Assembly: GCA_015523565.1 (NCBI GenBank)
Contig: WAKA01000044.1
Span: forward strand, 1 to 35,641
Reading direction: 5' to 3'
DNA from: Candidatus Heimdallarchaeota archaeon
GTDB taxonomy: Archaea; Asgardarchaeota; Heimdallarchaeia; Heimdallarchaeales; Kariarchaeaceae
DNA length: 35,641 nucleotides
The notes under the pieces are model-generated. The model did no database searches, was not told the origin of the DNA, and saw nothing but the letters and a program-made list of their open reading frames with translations. The first letter of the stretch is position 1, and every line of letters begins with the position of its first letter. Positions 13,236 through 21,969 of this stretch are shown piece after piece. A program made the position numbers and the translations under genes.

Positions 13236-14543
13236 GTGATGGGCGATACCGTGTTGATTTTTGGTGCGGGTGCAAGAGAACATGCATTGGCGAAAGCATA
13301 CTTAAAAAGTGATCTAGTATCTAGGGTTGTTGTTGCTCCTGGTAACACATGGATGAAAAGGGACGGAATTCAGGTAGATCGCTCCTGTAGCTTAAAAGAT
13401 GCAGAAAGCATGTTAAAGGTTGCATTAAAGTACAGCCCTGATCTTGCAGATGTTGCACAGGATGACGCTCTTGCCTCTGGGACTGTAGATCTGCTCCTCG
13501 ATAATGGCATCCCTGCATTTGGTCCCACAAAAGCCGCGGCACGCATAGAATGGGATAAATCTTGGTCCAGGGACTTTATGAAAAAATATGGAATTCCCTC
13601 CCCTAAATTCAAAAGCTTTGATGATCCCAATATTGCAAAAAGCTATGTTAAAGAACTGTATTCAGTAAATCCCGACTCGTATGTTTTTGTCAAGGCTAGT
13701 GGACTTGCCGCAGGTAAAGGAGCATTGGCGGCTCATACTCTTCAAGAGGCTCTTGAATGCATAGACAGAATGAAAACATTTGGCAAGGCAGGTGAAATTT
13801 TTGTAATTGAAGAAGGATTGGTTGGTGAGGAGTTTTCATTTTATGCCATCTGTGATGGAACAAACTACATCCCGTTGATGTCTGCCCAAGATCATAAAAG
13901 GCTGTTGGATCATGATCGCGGTCCCCAAACTGGTGGAATGGGGGTGGTTGCTCCTACTGGTCTTACATCCAGCTTGGAAGATAAAATTTCAGAGAATTTC
14001 ATACATCCCGTTCTTGAAGGCATGAAAAAAGAAGGTCATCCATATGTTGGCATTCTCTATTTCAGTGGCATTCTGGTGGATGACCAAATCTTTTCAATTG
14101 AATACAACGCCAGATGGGGTGATCCAGAATGCCAAGCCATCCTTCCAGGCTTGAAAACGGATTATTATTCTTTGGTGAAAAAAGCGTTGGACGGGAATCT
14201 CGGAGAAATACAGGTTGAATTTGATGGAAAAACTCGTGTATGTGTTGTCGGTGCTTCATTTGGATATCCACAGGACTATTCCGATGTAAAAGGAAAACTG
14301 GTATATGGTCTTGAAGCATTGCATGACGTAGAATTATTTAGTGCAGGATTGGGGGACATGGATGGAAGAACCGTGGCAAACGGTGGCAGGCTTTTCTCTG
14401 TTGTTGGTGAGGGTGATAATGTACTTTCCGCACGAAAAATCGCATACGGTGCCATCTCAACAGTGGCAATTGAAAATAATTTACTGCATTTCAGGACAGA
14501 TATCGGCTGGAGAGATGTATTAAGGCACTTTAAGTCTCAATAA
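13236..14543 (+). CDS. purD: Phosphoribosylamine-glycine ligase PurD
   Basis: GAGAREHA, APGN, KASGLAAGKG, QDHKR, GPQTGGMG, EYNARWGDPE, GGR. Start is GTG 13236 or ATG 13239. Confidence 0.96.
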   Translation: MMGDTVLIFGAGAREHALAKAYLKSDLVSRVVVAPGNTWMKRDGIQVDRSCSLKDAESMLKVALKYSPDLADVAQDDALASGTVDLLLDNGIPAFGPTKAAARIEWDKSWSRDFMKKYGIPSPKFKSFDDPNIAKSYVKELYSVNPDSYVFVKASGLAAGKGALAAHTLQEALECIDRMKTFGKAGEIFVIEEGLVGEEFSFYAICDGTNYIPLMSAQDHKRLLDHDRGPQTGGMGVVAPTGLTSSLEDKISENFIHPVLEGMKKEGHPYVGILYFSGILVDDQIFSIEYNARWGDPECQAILPGLKTDYYSLVKKALDGNLGEIQVEFDGKTRVCVVGASFGYPQDYSDVKGKLVYGLEALHDVELFSAGLGDMDGRTVANGGRLFSVVGEGDNVLSARKIAYGAISTVAIENNLLHFRTDIGWRDVLRHFKSQ

Positions 14544-17520
14544 CAATACTATGTTTGCAAAGTGGGCAATACGGTCGCTTCGAAACCCATTCCAGCAAAT
14601 GATCTTCATGATACCAATATTGGCATCCTGGACACATAATGCCGATTTCAACTTCTTTCATACAAATCAGGCATTGGGTTATTGTTGTGGGAACCGACAA
14701 TTCCAATTGGAATGTTGAAAAGAACAACTTGCTTGGAATTGTCTCCTCAGCAATAAGCTCTTCCTTTTCAAACAACTCTTTTGGAAACTCAGGTGCTGTC
14801 ATCCCTAATTTTTCAAAAATCTGCCCTTGCCATTCCTTTACCTTGGCATAACCAATTTCTGTCAATTCATCTGCCCTTATTTTCTGTATCAATCCTCTTT
14901 TCATTGCATCCATGGCAATCCTGTCTACTAAATGTCTAGGGTGTTCCAAATCGGGATTTGTCACAAGTATGACCAATTTTTTCTTCGCTCGAGTCAAAGC
15001 TACATTTATCCTTTTCTCATCCGTAAGCAATGGCACTTGATGTGATGTCACTGTTGACAAGATAATGACTTCACGTTCTGATCCCTGATATCTGTCAATA
15101 GTGTCTATCTCCACTTCGGGATAGGGAAGAATGGTTCGGAGCAAGGCTACCTGCGCCCTGAATGGTGCAATGATACCGATGGCTTTTGGAGGAACATTGG
15201 TGTTCATCAAATCCATGAAACAATAGAATGTTGCGAGAACCTCTGCATTATTTGAAGGTGAAACTTCATTATGGGTTGGATTCTCTATAACTAAAACCTC
15301 ATAGGGTTTATTGCCAATGTACAATCCCTCAAACTGTGGCAATTGTTGCCTAGCAATCTCTGGACTGCCTGCTTCCAATTGACCATCATAAAACTCATTG
15401 TTCGGGAAGTAAAGTATCTCATCGTTCATTCGATATTGTTTTGTTAGTCTAATGAAACGTTCTGGAAACCTTTCGGCCAACCTTTCAAAAAGGGAGACAT
15501 GGAGCTCTTTTTCCCGTGCCTCCGGAGATGTGACTATCGGTTGCAACTGTGCATGGTCTCCCACAAGAATTGCCTTTTCTCCACGTAGGATCGGTCTAAG
15601 TGCATCTGGTTCCGTCATTTGTGCCGCTTCATCAAGGATGACGTAATCAAACAAGACCTGTTCATAAAGGTCATTTCCTATTGTGGTTGTTGTGGATAAC
15701 ACAACCAATGGCTCTTTTTTCTCCAACATTGACTTGAAAAGGTCTTCCTTATTAAAAGGCGAATGCACCTGCAACGATTCATGCATTGACCACTCATTTC
15801 CAAGTCTAAGAAAATCAATTCCTGCCTCCTGCAGTTTCTTCCCGATATTGTCAACCGCCATATTTGTATAGGCAGTGCAAAGTATTTTTCTTCCCTTAAA
15901 CAAAAACTGCCTGACCAATTCTACAATTACACTTGTCTTTCCTGTTCCTGCTGGTCCCTGTATCATGAAGAAATCAGGTGTCACCATTGACTGCATGATT
16001 GCTTTTTCCTGCACCTCATTATAGGGCATTTTGGGTTTACTGATTTTTTGAAGGGCTTCTGGAAGAGGTTCAAGCTTAAACTCTGAATCAGAAAATGATT
16101 TAATTATAATATCCAATAATGGATTTTTTATGAACATTGCATAAAAGACTGCTTTCCTTCCCCCTCTCAACCCATATGTAAAACGAGTGGGTACAATCCC
16201 CATGTTTTCTGGTAAGGGATTCACGGAGGAAACCGTTATCTTCTCACTGTCAAGGTTTACAATGGTCAATGAATAGAATAGTGTGGTTGTATCGTGTAGC
16301 TTGCTAAGATCGTAGCCAATGGCAAAATCCCCTTTTCTAAACCTTGGGGTGTTGGACACCTGCCGAAAAGTGGTAACTATTGAACTTCCATGTTCCTGTT
16401 CATCAATTTTTTCAGTGGTGATGACTGCAAACCCATCATCGACTAAACGTTTTCGGAACCGTTTATCTGTTGAACAAACTCGTGAATAGAGATATGACTC
16501 AGATAGACTGTCCCTTTCCTCAGCCATAAGCGCTTGCGTGAAATGGTCAAAATATTGCTGGTGTGGTTCCTTCCATTCTTCTTTTGTACAAATTGGTGCC
16601 TGAAGACAATTTTCACAATCACGCTGTGTTTTCATCCCTGCACAAAGTTGCCAGCATCCCTCCTTTACATAACAATATCTGCATGCCTTTGCATCATCTC
16701 CCCTAAGCACTTTGGGAAGTAACCGTCCTGATTGAACCAAATATGCATAATTCCTCCCAATGACTGTCCTATGTTTTTCCCAATGTGTGGGCAATGCAAA
16801 TCCCATCTCCCCATCATTGACATAAAGAACCATTCCCATATGTTTCCCATATTCCTCCATCATTTGCAAATAGATGTTCATTTGGATGTTATGATTGGGC
16901 CATGGTGTCCCCTGCGGTATTTTTGATGACTTGAGTTCTATTATCTGGTCATTGATGATCCCGTCAAATTTTCCATGCAAGCCTAGATTCCAGTTTTGGC
17001 AGTCCAATTCTGTCAATCCCTTGGTTCCTACTCCATCAATTGCCCCAGCATCCCTTTCAAGATATTTCTTTGCCTCGTTTTCATCTGTATCACTTGCCAA
17101 CAGATCCAATTTGGCGTCCTGAAGTGCTAAATCGATTGCATTGGTCACATCCATCCCTCGAGCCAATTTATAGGAAAAGACATCATGGAGGAGATTCCCT
17201 TGCAGCATTCTCTTAAGGACATTCAAATCTGTTACCTTTTCCGCCCCCATTGTCCTGACATAAACTTTTCGAGGACAGGATATTGCATCTATTACGCTTG
17301 TCACTGCCACAAGGTAATGGGGTTCAATGACCAATAGCCCTTCTTTAGAGATAACATTGTTCTCTGCCTCCACATAGAGCATGTCCAACTTATTTAAAAA
17401 CGGCAAGAATTGAACCCATGGGTCTTCTAGTTTAATTTTTATTTTGGATCCCGTTTCGTCAGCACATAGAATCTCTTTTCCATTTACTTCCAACAACACT
17501 ACTTGACCTTTCAATACCAA
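14530..17520 (-). CDS. Dna2-like PD-(D/E)XK Fe-S nuclease / SF1B (Upf1/Dna2-like) helicase with C-terminal RING-type zinc finger
   Basis: Nuclease: CPRK (C82), GNLLH, GKFDG, IELKS, QMNIY, CRYC-x5-C. Helicase: QGPAGTGKT, DEAAQ, VGDHAQL, QYRMN, TIDRYQGSERE, NVALTRAK. C-terminus: CxxC-x9-CxxC-x4-HxxH-xxxW-CPxC. Confidence 0.88.
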   Translation of the reverse strand: MVLKGQVVLLEVNGKEILCADETGSKIKIKLEDPWVQFLPFLNKLDMLYVEAENNVISKEGLLVIEPHYLVAVTSVIDAISCPRKVYVRTMGAEKVTDLNVLKRMLQGNLLHDVFSYKLARGMDVTNAIDLALQDAKLDLLASDTDENEAKKYLERDAGAIDGVGTKGLTELDCQNWNLGLHGKFDGIINDQIIELKSSKIPQGTPWPNHNIQMNIYLQMMEEYGKHMGMVLYVNDGEMGFALPTHWEKHRTVIGRNYAYLVQSGRLLPKVLRGDDAKACRYCYVKEGCWQLCAGMKTQRDCENCLQAPICTKEEWKEPHQQYFDHFTQALMAEERDSLSESYLYSRVCSTDKRFRKRLVDDGFAVITTEKIDEQEHGSSIVTTFRQVSNTPRFRKGDFAIGYDLSKLHDTTTLFYSLTIVNLDSEKITVSSVNPLPENMGIVPTRFTYGLRGGRKAVFYAMFIKNPLLDIIIKSFSDSEFKLEPLPEALQKISKPKMPYNEVQEKAIMQSMVTPDFFMIQGPAGTGKTSVIVELVRQFLFKGRKILCTAYTNMAVDNIGKKLQEAGIDFLRLGNEWSMHESLQVHSPFNKEDLFKSMLEKKEPLVVLSTTTTIGNDLYEQVLFDYVILDEAAQMTEPDALRPILRGEKAILVGDHAQLQPIVTSPEAREKELHVSLFERLAERFPERFIRLTKQYRMNDEILYFPNNEFYDGQLEAGSPEIARQQLPQFEGLYIGNKPYEVLVIENPTHNEVSPSNNAEVLATFYCFMDLMNTNVPPKAIGIIAPFRAQVALLRTILPYPEVEIDTIDRYQGSEREVIILSTVTSHQVPLLTDEKRINVALTRAKKKLVILVTNPDLEHPRHLVDRIAMDAMKRGLIQKIRADELTEIGYAKVKEWQGQIFEKLGMTAPEFPKELFEKEELIAEETIPSKLFFSTFQLELSVPTTITQCLICMKEVEIGIMCPGCQYWYHEDHLLEWVSKRPYCPLCKHSIVIET

Positions 17521-17553: not shown

Positions 17554-18201
17554 TCAGTTATCAATATTGAACTGACTTTCTCCACATTGTTCACAAAATT
17601 CATTTTCAGAAGGAACCTCTGAAAAACAGTTCCAACACTTTTTCGTGGGTGTCGCCCTCAATGTGCGATCTGCAATATTTTCCAGAACTGCCGTCGCGAG
17701 ATTGAATACGTCATTATCTAGCTTTTGTATTTCTTTAGCACTGTATTTTCCCCAAATGAACTTCCCTACAAAAAAGACAATGATGGATGTAAGAAACACC
17801 CAAAAAAGGATATTTGGCAGGTCTGTGGATACAATGAAATTCAAAAATGAAAGGAAAATGGTAATTATGATAGGAATCAAAAACCATAACAGGTAATAAA
17901 AAAGGAATGGCCTGCTTTGTCGGTTACTACTTTTTTTTCTTTTGTACTTGACAACAAGTCCCGTACTTTCTACAGGATAAATGACATGATCCGCTATCAC
18001 ATTGACAAACAAGGGGCGTGATGGCTTTCTCTCTAAAATGAGATACGTCTTGAACAACTTTCTTTTAACAAGCCATGAATGTTTATTTTCTGTAAATTCA
18101 TTCAGCTCTGTAGAAAATCCCCGGTTGTGAAATGCATCTTCTATTTCTGCCTTCAACTGTTCCTTTGGGAGATTATCCAGACGTATCGCCTTGTTTGGCA
18201 T
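17554..18201 (-). CDS. Membrane protein (2 TM helices) with C-terminal zinc ribbon
   Basis: Two hydrophobic stretches (FLFYYLLWFLIPIIITIFLSFL; ILFWVFLTSIIVFFVG) and CWNC-x10-CEQCG. Confidence 0.75.
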   Translation of the reverse strand: MPNKAIRLDNLPKEQLKAEIEDAFHNRGFSTELNEFTENKHSWLVKRKLFKTYLILERKPSRPLFVNVIADHVIYPVESTGLVVKYKRKKSSNRQSRPFLFYYLLWFLIPIIITIFLSFLNFIVSTDLPNILFWVFLTSIIVFFVGKFIWGKYSAKEIQKLDNDVFNLATAVLENIADRTLRATPTKKCWNCFSEVPSENEFCEQCGESQFNIDN

Positions 18202-18272
18202 TAATTTTTGATATGATTTACTGTTAAATATTTTTTTAAACCATCTCCCAATATATCACAAAATTTCAACAA

Positions 18273-18812
18273 TCATTCCAATACCTCAACAATTTGATCA
18301 AGAAATATTTTCTCCTTTTTCAAGAGAAAAAAGTGTGGGAAGCCTCCATCGTCAGAAGAACCTATTTTGGCAAATGCAGTCCTTATTTGAGGACTTGATG
18401 CTAATTTTCTCGCCCAATTTTTTTCTTTTGGTTTCGATGATAGATCAAAAAAGATCATTTCCAACAGCATATGCTCAAGAATATAATCAATATGCCACCT
18501 TAGTGTTTTCCTTAAAGGTTTCCTATAAGGAGTCCCTCTTTCCCTAAAAAAATCAACTAATTCTTCAAAAACAGGGTGTTTTTCCCCATTTTTCTTGATT
18601 GCGTGTCTTAATAACCTGTTTGGCAAGCTTGTTGCACCAATTCCCATTGCAGAACCAACATAAAGATAAATTCCTTTTTCAAATTTTACTGCGTTTCCTC
18701 CATTATACCTACCGACAGTGAACTTTTTGTTTGTCTCATTCTTTATTACCAATAGATACGTCCCTTTTTTTTGTATTTCTTGTAAATGATCATCATACTT
18801 TGCCTTTATCAC
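18273..18812 (-). CDS. GIY-YIG superfamily nuclease, DUF123 type
   Basis: GTYLL, GIYLYVGSAMG, RLLRH, RWHIDY and GSSD, as in archaeal DUF123 proteins. Confidence 0.82.
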   Translation of the reverse strand: MIKAKYDDHLQEIQKKGTYLLVIKNETNKKFTVGRYNGGNAVKFEKGIYLYVGSAMGIGATSLPNRLLRHAIKKNGEKHPVFEELVDFFRERGTPYRKPLRKTLRWHIDYILEHMLLEMIFFDLSSKPKEKNWARKLASSPQIRTAFAKIGSSDDGGFPHFFLLKKEKIFLDQIVEVLE

Positions 18813-20591: not shown

Positions 20592-20837
20592 ATGGGAAAA
20601 GAATTGGAAAGTATCTATGAAACAATTGAGAAAAAATATGGTAAGATTGGACTTTACAGACTTGTTGTAAAGACCAAGATATCAAAAAACAGGGCTAAAG
20701 AAATAGAGGACGATCCTGAACTTATTTCATTGGTCAAGAAAAACATTGTGGAATTGGGTTTTGTGTATATAGAACCCCAAAGATCAAAGTCTCGTTTTGC
20801 TAGACTGGCAAGTTTCATAAGGAGGCGGAAAAGGTAA
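20592..20837 (+). CDS. Small helical hypothetical protein with basic amphipathic C-terminal tail
   Basis: GAGGA SD; coupled to the next gene by TAATG; tail SRFARLASFIRRRKR. Confidence 0.75.
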   Translation: MGKELESIYETIEKKYGKIGLYRLVVKTKISKNRAKEIEDDPELISLVKKNIVELGFVYIEPQRSKSRFARLASFIRRRKR

Positions 20838-21322
20838 TGGCAGAATTCAAATTAAATCTAGAAAAAGGTGAGCTACTTATTGGTGGCAAGAGATCTGTTT
20901 TCCATTGCAATCATTACAATACTTTTCTTCAAAAGACATTGATAGATGCAATGGGCGAAAAGATGACCGTTGTACAAATTTCGATTAGTGAAAAAATAAA
21001 CTTGGAGATGCTTGGAAAAGTCACTCAAGATGTAGACAATAAATTGGAAGAAATTGAGGAAATTTTCTCAAATTTAGGTTTGGGGATATTGGATCTGAGC
21101 AATATCGAACAAGGAAAGGCAATTGTTGATAATTCACATTATGCTTTAAACTGCTATTATAAATTCGGAGAACAAAAAGGGGGGTCTTGTCTGTTTGCCA
21201 ATGGATATATACAAGCCGCCTACCAAATATTGACTGGTGAACGGAAGGAATTTGTTGAGACACAGTGTGTTTCCATGAACCCTGAAAAATTTGAGAATTG
21301 CATTTTTGAGGTGAAAACATGA
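20837..21322 (+). CDS. V4R (4-vinyl reductase / Bet3-TRAPP / H-NOX-like fold) domain protein
   Basis: LGLG, NSHY, CLFANGYI, ETQC...C-x-F V4R signature; N-terminal FHCNHYN. Confidence 0.8.
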   Translation: MAEFKLNLEKGELLIGGKRSVFHCNHYNTFLQKTLIDAMGEKMTVVQISISEKINLEMLGKVTQDVDNKLEEIEEIFSNLGLGILDLSNIEQGKAIVDNSHYALNCYYKFGEQKGGSCLFANGYIQAAYQILTGERKEFVETQCVSMNPEKFENCIFEVKT

Positions 21323-21969
21323 TTGATATGAACTATGTAACCCAACAATTCAGCAAAGCAGAGATCAATAACGATGAGAATGGTCTAATTCCTGCCTTTG
21401 GTGTCTACCTTACAAAGATTTTTGGAGATTACTACGCAGAAATTTCCTTTGAGTTTGAAAAAATGTTTGCGGATGGCTTGGATGACCCTGAGGTGTTGGA
21501 GGCCGCGAGACAGCTATTGATTGAGGCAGGTCATGTCTGTGGTTTTAACACGTTTGGCGGCATCATGAAAAGCGAAGAATGGGGTGCTGTTGTTCTTCCT
21601 TTAATTCAAGAAAAAGAAGATTGGGTAAGGGGAATGGTTGCCATCATAAATGTACTCGGATGGGGCGTGTATTCCATTGCAGAAGTTTCAGAAGAAAAAC
21701 TGGTTCTTGAAATCAAGAATTCATATGAGGCAGATGCATATCTCAGGAGATATGGTGAAAATGCAGATCATCCCACCTGCTATCTTGCTTTGGGAGCCTC
21801 CATTGCCTTGATGAGTTTGGTTTATCATGCAGATATTTCCACAAAACCTGAATTGGATGATATTCTTTACGATCGCCTATTCAAAGAGGCAAGGAAATAT
21901 GCTGGCAAGGAAACTCATTGCATGGCAATGGGGCATGAAAATTGCAAGATTGAAATATTCAAACAATGA
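21319..21969 (+). CDS. V4R domain protein
   Basis: LGWG, NSYEA, CYLALG, ETHCMAMGHENC V4R signature; GAGGTGA SD; ATGA coupling with the upstream gene. Confidence 0.82.
   Translation: MIDMNYVTQQFSKAEINNDENGLIPAFGVYLTKIFGDYYAEISFEFEKMFADGLDDPEVLEAARQLLIEAGHVCGFNTFGGIMKSEEWGAVVLPLIQEKEDWVRGMVAIINVLGWGVYSIAEVSEEKLVLEIKNSYEADAYLRRYGENADHPTCYLALGASIALMSLVYHADISTKPELDDILYDRLFKEARKYAGKETHCMAMGHENCKIEIFKQ

Follow-up and report, generated by a model that had tools for sequence, protein, structure and literature searches.

A Dna2 nuclease-helicase ending in a predicted RING-variant finger in Heimdallarchaeia

Contig WAKA01000044.1 of assembly GCA_015523565.1 (35,641 nucleotides (nt), analysed as a whole and called the window below; contig C44) belongs to a metagenome-assembled genome (MAG) of a Candidatus Heimdallarchaeota archaeon. 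This MAG stems from a hydrothermal-vent metagenome and comprises 3.57 Mb in 233 contigs at 90% completeness. An open reading frame (ORF) on the minus strand of the window (14530-17520, TTG start codon) codes for a Dna2 nuclease-helicase of 996 amino acids (aa), whose C-terminus is formed by a zinc finger that profile and fold searches assign to the RING/U-box group as a non-canonical variant. The fusion is a real, old and lineage-wide joining of two known parts; it hints at a tie between ubiquitin tagging and DNA maintenance in Heimdallarchaeia, without proving it. The parts of the gene are as follows.

14530..17520, minus strand: gene for a 996-aa Dna2 that bears the RING-variant finger at its C-terminus (Foldseek top matches mouse Dna2 5ean/5eaw/5eax)
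17341..17520, minus strand: N-terminal all-beta domain, aa ~1-60, boundary approximate (secondary structure of the model and whole-chain Dna2 match)
16486..17340, minus strand: PD-(D/E)XK nuclease of the Dna2/AddB/Cas4 type with iron-sulphur (Fe-S) staple (Pfam Dna2 above cut-off; Cas4 match)
16588..16644, minus strand: extra Cys4 cluster C293, C302, C305, C311, directly after the Fe-S staple (alignment)
14953..16029, minus strand: superfamily 1B (SF1B, UPF1-like) helicase core, aa 498-856, motifs all intact (Pfam AAA_11/AAA_12; Dna2 in the PDB, E 1e-53; motif table)
14674..14952, minus strand: linker, aa 857-949, little conserved (per-position conservation; model confidence dips at aa 911-930)
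14557..14673, minus strand: predicted C4-H2-C2 RING-variant finger, aa 950-988, with the E2-face residues I952, W978, P986 and L987 (profile and fold searches)
14554..14556, minus strand: K989, linchpin position (alignment and comparison with Caldiarchaeum srfp, PMC5654768)

A Pfam search with the full ORF yielded Dna2 (aa 21-161, 51.7 bits at a cut-off of 22.4), AAA_11/AAA_12 and a weak zf-RING_2 match at aa 949-989. The AlphaFold model of the full protein (predicted local distance difference test (pLDDT) 87, predicted template modelling score (pTM) 0.85) was matched by Foldseek to mouse Dna2 over the whole length (TMq 0.68-0.70, ~1050 columns, E 5e-50, 21% identity). Conservation was assessed in an alignment of 96 archaeal Dna2 sequences; its 69 Heimdallarchaeia orthologues are kin, and some of them are nearly identical. 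In all 96 sequences, the nuclease active site H112, D186, E195, K197, Q213 and Y217 (the last two forming the Q-x3-Y motif) is invariant; the equivalents in mouse Dna2 are His164, Asp278, Glu299 and Lys301 (PMC4716839). Equally invariant are the helicase residues Q504, K528, D630, E631, Q658, R697 and R844, as well as the Fe-S cysteines C82, C280, C283 and C289 (one N-terminal Cys followed by CxxC-x5-C), which align with those of the mouse enzyme. By every feature testable here the product is a Dna2, with a predicted Fe-S cluster. In the model, the N-terminal all-beta domain occupies the place of the RPA-binding OB domain of mouse Dna2 (PMC4716839) and would itself be an OB domain. Homology shows a predicted capacity for threading of a single-stranded 5'-end through the Fe-S nuclease tunnel and for SF1B translocation, i.e. 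for the trimming of long flaps and the resection of ends that eukaryotic Dna2 carries out. The additional cysteines C293-C311 are invariant in 33 Kariarchaeaceae-like and 25 Heimdallarchaeaceae sequences, partially present in some Loki-type sequences, and absent from 10 Hodarchaeales and 18 haloarchaeal ones; they possibly constitute a second metal site.

The eight ligands of the finger are C950, C953, C963, C966, H971, H974, C985 and C988. W978 follows H974 by four residues, and the finger terminates in CPxC. The isolated finger scores 28.6 bits against Pfam zf-RING_2 and thus passes the cut-off of 27.3, and the same family matches 29 of 29 aligned orthologous fingers with a best E-value of 3e-9. 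Seven of the eight ligands are invariant in the 69 orthologues and the remaining one, H974, is found in 68 of them. The finger is therefore no chance pattern. When a profile of the 29 fingers was compared with the PDB, the active RING-H2 ubiquitin ligases (E3s) Arkadia, HRD1 and gp78 ranked at the top, with E-values from 2e-11 (Arkadia) to 7e-10. In the register relative to Arkadia and HRD1, C966 falls on C3, H971 on H5 and H974 on C6. The canonical RING-H2 and RING-HC arrangements do not fit: an aromatic residue occupies the His4 position, C963 comes in as an additional ligand, and a His serves as the sixth.

The fold of the finger was assessed from its model (pLDDT 91), which displays the features of a RING/U-box domain: eight conserved zinc ligands, a central helix bearing the Trp, and a terminal CxxC loop. 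Superposition on the HRD1 RING and the Prp19 U-box gave a Z of 7.0 and a root-mean-square deviation of 1.4-2.0 A over 48-52 aa; Z values for HRD1, Prp19 and Nse1 lie between 6.8 and 7.4, with 6.8 over 55 aa (TMq 0.75-0.76) for the RING-like domain of Nse1. Foldseek likewise returned RING/U-box entries (best E 5e-3). These scores are modest (Z below 8), as expected for a domain of 56 aa. On the basis of the profile and fold searches, the finger is assigned as a predicted non-canonical member of the RING/U-box group.

A preliminary description of the window, made from the letters alone, had announced a Dna2 with an intact SF1B helicase and a C-terminal RING-type finger. Both assignments hold: helicase motifs and nuclease and Fe-S residues are all intact, and the TM score to mouse Dna2 reaches 0.70. 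The C4-H2-C2 pattern at aa 950-988 (nt 14557-14673), its Trp spacing and the terminal CPxC were found exactly as described; the refinement concerns the ligand register, which is non-canonical. The comparison with RING and PHD models that the description had proposed gave strong matches to RING and weak ones to PHD.

The finger might nevertheless be a PHD-like or DNA-binding zinc finger. Its C-x2-C-x4-H-x2-ligand spacing is common to PHD fingers, and Pfam PHD weakly matches 17 of the 29 orthologous fingers (best E 0.0014). Against this stand the complete set of zf-RING_2 matches, the RING E3s heading the PDB profile search, the model with its Trp on the RING central helix and its close superposition on RING and U-box, and the His as sixth ligand. 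None of the 50 matches listed in either fold search bears PHD in its title, an absence that excludes nothing. Taken together, a PHD-like or DNA-binding finger is highly improbable.

Among the closest relatives of the protein, which carry the label Ca. Kariarchaeaceae or Heimdallarchaeota, every complete sequence has the finger at its end. The same is true of all complete Dna2 proteins from named genomes of Heimdallarchaeaceae, including the closed genomes of Ca. Heimdallarchaeum endolithica and aukensis (L049, L063), and of Hodarchaeales. The finger is absent from nine Loki-type sequences (one of which ends at a contig end) and from 18 haloarchaeal sequences, and no match to the finger profile was obtained in the eukaryote-type Dna2 retrieved. 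Across the class, the gene occurs as a single copy in 53 of 83 genomes (by family 9/11, 1/1, 31/31 for Heimdallarchaeaceae, 0/3, 11/22, 0/2 and 0/12); it is widespread, not universal. With this query, it was not found in families f4, f6 and f7 and in half of the Hodarchaeales. A PF08696 search of these three families and of the Hodarchaeales lacking the gene returned one weak match in f6; most of these MAGs are incomplete, yet the set includes G066, which is 96% complete in a single contig. The best reading is that the gene is the chromosomal, single-copy housekeeping Dna2 of a Heimdallarchaeia archaeon that probably belongs to the Kariarchaeaceae.

An unrooted tree was calculated from 48 selected sequences (LG+G4), 17 of which display compositional bias. 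In the IQ-TREE reconstruction, the finger-bearing Dna2 proteins form a single branch (88/86) within which every family is monophyletic, a pattern that fits a single ancient fusion. Dna2 gained the RING-variant finger in an ancestor of several families of Heimdallarchaeia, the finger being of a subtype that recurs on many proteins of these genomes. The position of eukaryotic Dna2 depends on the program: FastTree groups it with Loki-type Dna2, whereas IQ-TREE does not and places it, weakly (77/91), with unlabelled non-Asgard sequences. A grouping of eukaryotes with the finger-bearing clade was not rejected by the approximately unbiased test (p 0.18). The tree thus neither supports nor rejects a descent of eukaryotic Dna2 from that clade.

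That the fusion arose during assembly or gene calling might be suspected of a MAG in 233 contigs. The same architecture, which the preliminary description had proposed to look for in other MAGs, recurs in the 69 Heimdallarchaeia orthologues from independent assemblies, two of them closed genomes, and an artefact is ruled out by them. A contig from a second sample shows no difference across 14615-15536, which takes in the end of the helicase, the linker and the greater part of the finger; this is weak evidence since it comes from the same study. The probability of an artefact is thus negligible. Two loci deserve separate mention. In the orthologue at L028:3992-6952, a single TAG separates a part of 748 aa from an ORF of 230 aa that comprises helicase end and finger (sequencing error, pseudogene or readthrough), and a contig of a Thorarchaeota-labelled bin (L066), which is probably mis-binned, carries a finger nearly identical to that of the Heimdallarchaeaceae locus L040.

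The preliminary description had further proposed a surface typical of RING domains that bind ubiquitin-conjugating enzymes (E2s). The corresponding set is present in this protein: I952 as hydrophobic residue of loop 1, W978 on the helix, P986-L987, and K989 as basic linchpin. K989 follows W978 by 11 residues, which is the spacing of W58 and R69 in srfp from Caldiarchaeum; from this spacing and the published description of srfp, I952, W978 and K989 would correspond to I30, W58 and R69. Mutation of the three srfp residues abolishes or impairs the archaeal ubiquitin cascade (PMC5654768). A Lys or Arg occupies the linchpin position in 30 of 33 Kariarchaeaceae-like and in 25 of 25 Heimdallarchaeaceae sequences (55/58 together), and the surface positions near K989 vary, especially in the diverse Kariarchaeaceae-like set. 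A predicted complex of the finger with the E2 encoded on contig C204 (alignments, 2 Zn) scored 0.04 relative to a mark of 0.32 and weighs neither way.

Ubiquitin, the activating enzyme (E1) and E2, for which a search of the genome had been suggested, are all encoded. On contig C97, a ubiquitin ending in GG plus a tail of five residues directly precedes an E1 (L012, G000:C97:18943-23428); at a distance of about 2 kb upstream, the same strand carries a gene that resembles RadA, as judged by eye. Contig C104 carries an operon for two ubiquitin-like proteins (Ubl), E1, E2, a JAB-like protein and a membrane RING protein, in this order (L011, 1125-5573, plus strand). The N-termini of the two Ubls in this operon are acidic, and their last residues are AG, not GG; the E2 carries an insertion ahead of the catalytic Cys. 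In the finger of this operon, the sixth ligand position is taken by Glu and the linchpin position by Ser. Contig C204 contains a canonical stand-alone E2 with YPF and PA loops (L001:1444-1902); this most conserved E2 has an apparent ATA start 17 codons before the first ATG, where relatives have Met. A UQ_con-type gene in a cluster resembling the endosomal sorting complex required for transport (contig C32) probably codes for a ubiquitin E2 variant (UEV), and two JAMMs complete the set. The same finger subtype occurs in 11 copies in this genome, among whose carriers is the last gene of the C104 E1-E2 operon; the subtype is therefore tied to the ubiquitin system and is also a mobile C-terminal module, which makes the fusion to Dna2 less singular. 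The other carriers (L014-L022; contigs C1, C6, C8, C46, C99, C160, C164, C203 and C210) include an 81-aa stand-alone protein, a HEAT-like protein and several zinc-ribbon proteins; a further one is a 695-aa winged-helix/PCI-like repeat protein, and several are scaffold-like. The linchpin is Lys or Arg in nine of the ten other fingers. Judged by sequence, the carriers may form an expanded E3-like repertoire.

The reading that we favour, and hold to be a little likelier right than wrong, is that the housekeeping Dna2 carries an E2-recruiting RING module and that the tagged proteins are Dna2 itself or others at the DNA end it occupies. It is favoured because the catalytic residues of Dna2 are intact, the profile matches are RING E3s and the fold matches RING/U-box domains, the functional residues of srfp have counterparts, the basic linchpin is kept, ubiquitin, E1 and E2 are encoded in the genome, and the gene is single-copy with a tree that follows the host families. 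The finger would dock the E2~ubiquitin thioester via I952, W978 and P986-L987, K989 would close it, and Dna2 would act as a tethered E3. Self-ubiquitylation would limit a dangerous nuclease; alternatively, the tag might go to RPA, PCNA or other proteins that share the DNA end with Dna2. The more specific version, in which DNA ends activate Heimdallarchaeia Dna2 as a ubiquitin ligase and its targets in flap processing and resection are RPA, PCNA or Dna2 itself, is unlikely. If true, it would represent a one-protein archaeal link of ubiquitin to genome maintenance, which eukaryotes run via separate RING E3s.

Several observations weigh against an E2-recruiting role. The E2 face is kept less strictly than the zinc ligands, since all 10 Hodarchaeales sequences have Val instead of the Pro and Gln at the linchpin, the Trp is replaced by Ala in three Kariarchaeaceae-like sequences, and lineage L053 lacks the Trp helix altogether. 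Trp and Pro, moreover, have structural roles in RING cores, too. Genes for ubiquitin, E1 or E2 adjoin the Dna2-RING gene at none of the loci examined. UQ_con genes (E2/UEV) occur in 83 of 83 class genomes, which permits such a role, yet they do so even in families in which this Dna2 was not found, so that co-occurrence with the ubiquitin system does not discriminate. The fold matches of the finger include the RING folds of Nse1, TFIIH, GATOR2/SEA and arenavirus Z, in whose complexes ligase activity is weak or debated.

It is possible, though on the doubtful side, that the tail is a structural or partner-binding module that serves a replisome or repair partner or oligomerisation and is no true ligase, comparable to the RING folds of GATOR2 or of TFIIH p44. 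Stricter conservation of the zinc ligands than of the E2 face, with Val and Gln replacing the Pro and the basic linchpin in Hodarchaeales, would fit such a module, as would the four-Cys-first ligand order resembling the Nse1 RING-like domain, which is among the best structural matches, and the presence of the finger on many unrelated proteins of the genome. A structural role leaves unaccounted for that a solvent-facing Lys or Arg is kept at the linchpin in two families and in most of the other fingers of the genome, that the same finger subtype ends an E1-E2 operon, and that srfp, a tested archaeal E3, is described with a similar shifted register and an extra Cys. A quite different possibility, raised by the preliminary description, is a nucleic-acid-sensing defence factor, in which the helicase would sense foreign DNA or RNA, the nuclease would cut and the RING would signal, comparable to ZNFX1 or Prometheus/Hhe. 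SF1 helicase-E3 fusions do function in eukaryotic immunity, the helicase scores against the defence models MkoA, PLuB, ProA and Hhe, DNA methylase genes adjoin the gene in 7-8 Hodarchaeales loci, and the gene was not found in about one third of the class genomes. These model matches, however, are confined to the generic helicase and, for the NCBIfam models, lie far below the cut-offs (230 vs 999, 61 vs 1500 and 49 vs 2000 bits, the last for Hhe). Defence helicases of the Prometheus/Hhe type have a four-domain architecture with DUF4011 and DUF3320 (PMC13700489), and Pfam matches to these two domains are missing here. The gene is single-copy, present in all 31 Heimdallarchaeaceae genomes and syntenic within families, and its tree tracks the host families; in the window it adjoins a purine operon, and PADLOC gave no match for three of its neighbours. 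The defence alternative has thus lost ground and is very unlikely.

The neighbours of Dna2-RING are specific to each family, and no conserved operon with ubiquitin or repair genes was found among the loci examined. In Hodarchaeales (L055-L069), genes for Eco57I/TaqI-like and N6/N4 DNA methylases come after Dna2-RING at the 7-8 loci mentioned. At three Heimdallarchaeum-type loci, an RFC-large/Rad17-like ATPase is encoded upstream. In the window, the 3' end of the Dna2 gene and the convergent purD overlap by 14 nt (14530-14543), and purF-purD also lies downstream of Dna2 in a genome of the same genus (L024/L131). The stretch upstream on the same strand (17554-18812, minus) carries a DUF123 gene and a gene for a membrane protein with two helices and a zinc ribbon; the latter stays adjacent to Dna2 in loci of the same genus. 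Two V4R-domain genes are located at 20837-21969 (plus strand). The linker of Dna2 forms helices followed by a beta-hairpin in the Kariarchaeaceae-like group and is shorter in other families; inspection by eye revealed no canonical PCNA-binding motif in it.

Little is known of the physiological targets of ubiquitin in archaea, and the srfp cascade was reconstituted with a foreign substrate (PMC5654768). The long retention of a RING on a replication and repair enzyme points to DNA-end processing as a process that may be under the control of Asgard ubiquitin, and it does so in lineages near the eukaryote stem. Ubiquitin, E1, two E2s, the fused finger and a stand-alone finger all occur in one genome, which makes the question of Asgard ubiquitin targets directly testable. 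This claim is limited by the finger being a common module in the genome.

No description of a Dna2-RING fusion was found in the literature on Dna2, Asgard, Heimdall, RING and zinc finger, a coverage outside of which many subscription papers lie. According to Feng et al. 2025 (PMC12680538), eukaryotic Dna2 is related to some Asgard homologues, an Asgard Dna2 tree being given in Ext. Data Fig. 5b; the main text makes no mention of RING or ubiquitin. The preliminary description had stated that other helicase-RING fusions belong to superfamily 2. The statement is incomplete, since UPF1, an SF1 helicase with RING-like modules and proposed E3 activity (PMC9914065), and ZNFX1, an SF1 helicase-E3 (10.1101/2025.10.14.682297), also combine a helicase with an E3 module. 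Like Heimdall Dna2, both join a UPF1-family SF1 motor and a proposed or shown E3 module on one chain. As RNA helicases, they carry their modules (CH/RING-like or RZ/Miz) at the N-terminus and lack the Dna2 nuclease; the likeness is an analogy and not a homology of the fusion.

Among the closest known counterparts, eukaryotic Dna2 (mouse DNA2, 5EAN/5EAW/5EAX; PMC4716839) agrees with the Heimdall protein in the order of its domains, the Fe-S staple, the His/Asp/Glu/Lys of the active site and the SF1B motor; in contrast to it, the Heimdall enzyme bears the C-terminal RING-variant finger and, outside Hodarchaeales, the second Cys4 cluster. The Lokiarchaeia-type and haloarchaeal Dna2 proteins differ by the missing finger. 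With the RING-H2 E3s Arkadia, HRD1 and gp78, the finger has in common the best sequence-profile scores and the E2-face residues, whereas it differs in the His as sixth ligand and in lacking the canonical His4. The Nse1 RING-like domain of SMC5/6 corresponds to it in the four-Cys-first ligand order and in its close fold. A search for srfp with the finger profile returned three proteins, none of which is named srfp. Caldiarchaeum subterraneum srfp is an archaeal RING E3 of shown activity, which stands alone and is encoded in a ubiquitin operon (PMC5654768); its register is reported to have a shifted C3/H4 and an extra Cys. The finger of Heimdall Dna2 fits this description, and its spacing suggests that both belong to the same subtype. 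Unlike srfp, it is fused to an enzyme that is encoded elsewhere in the genome, and its ligase activity is a prediction.

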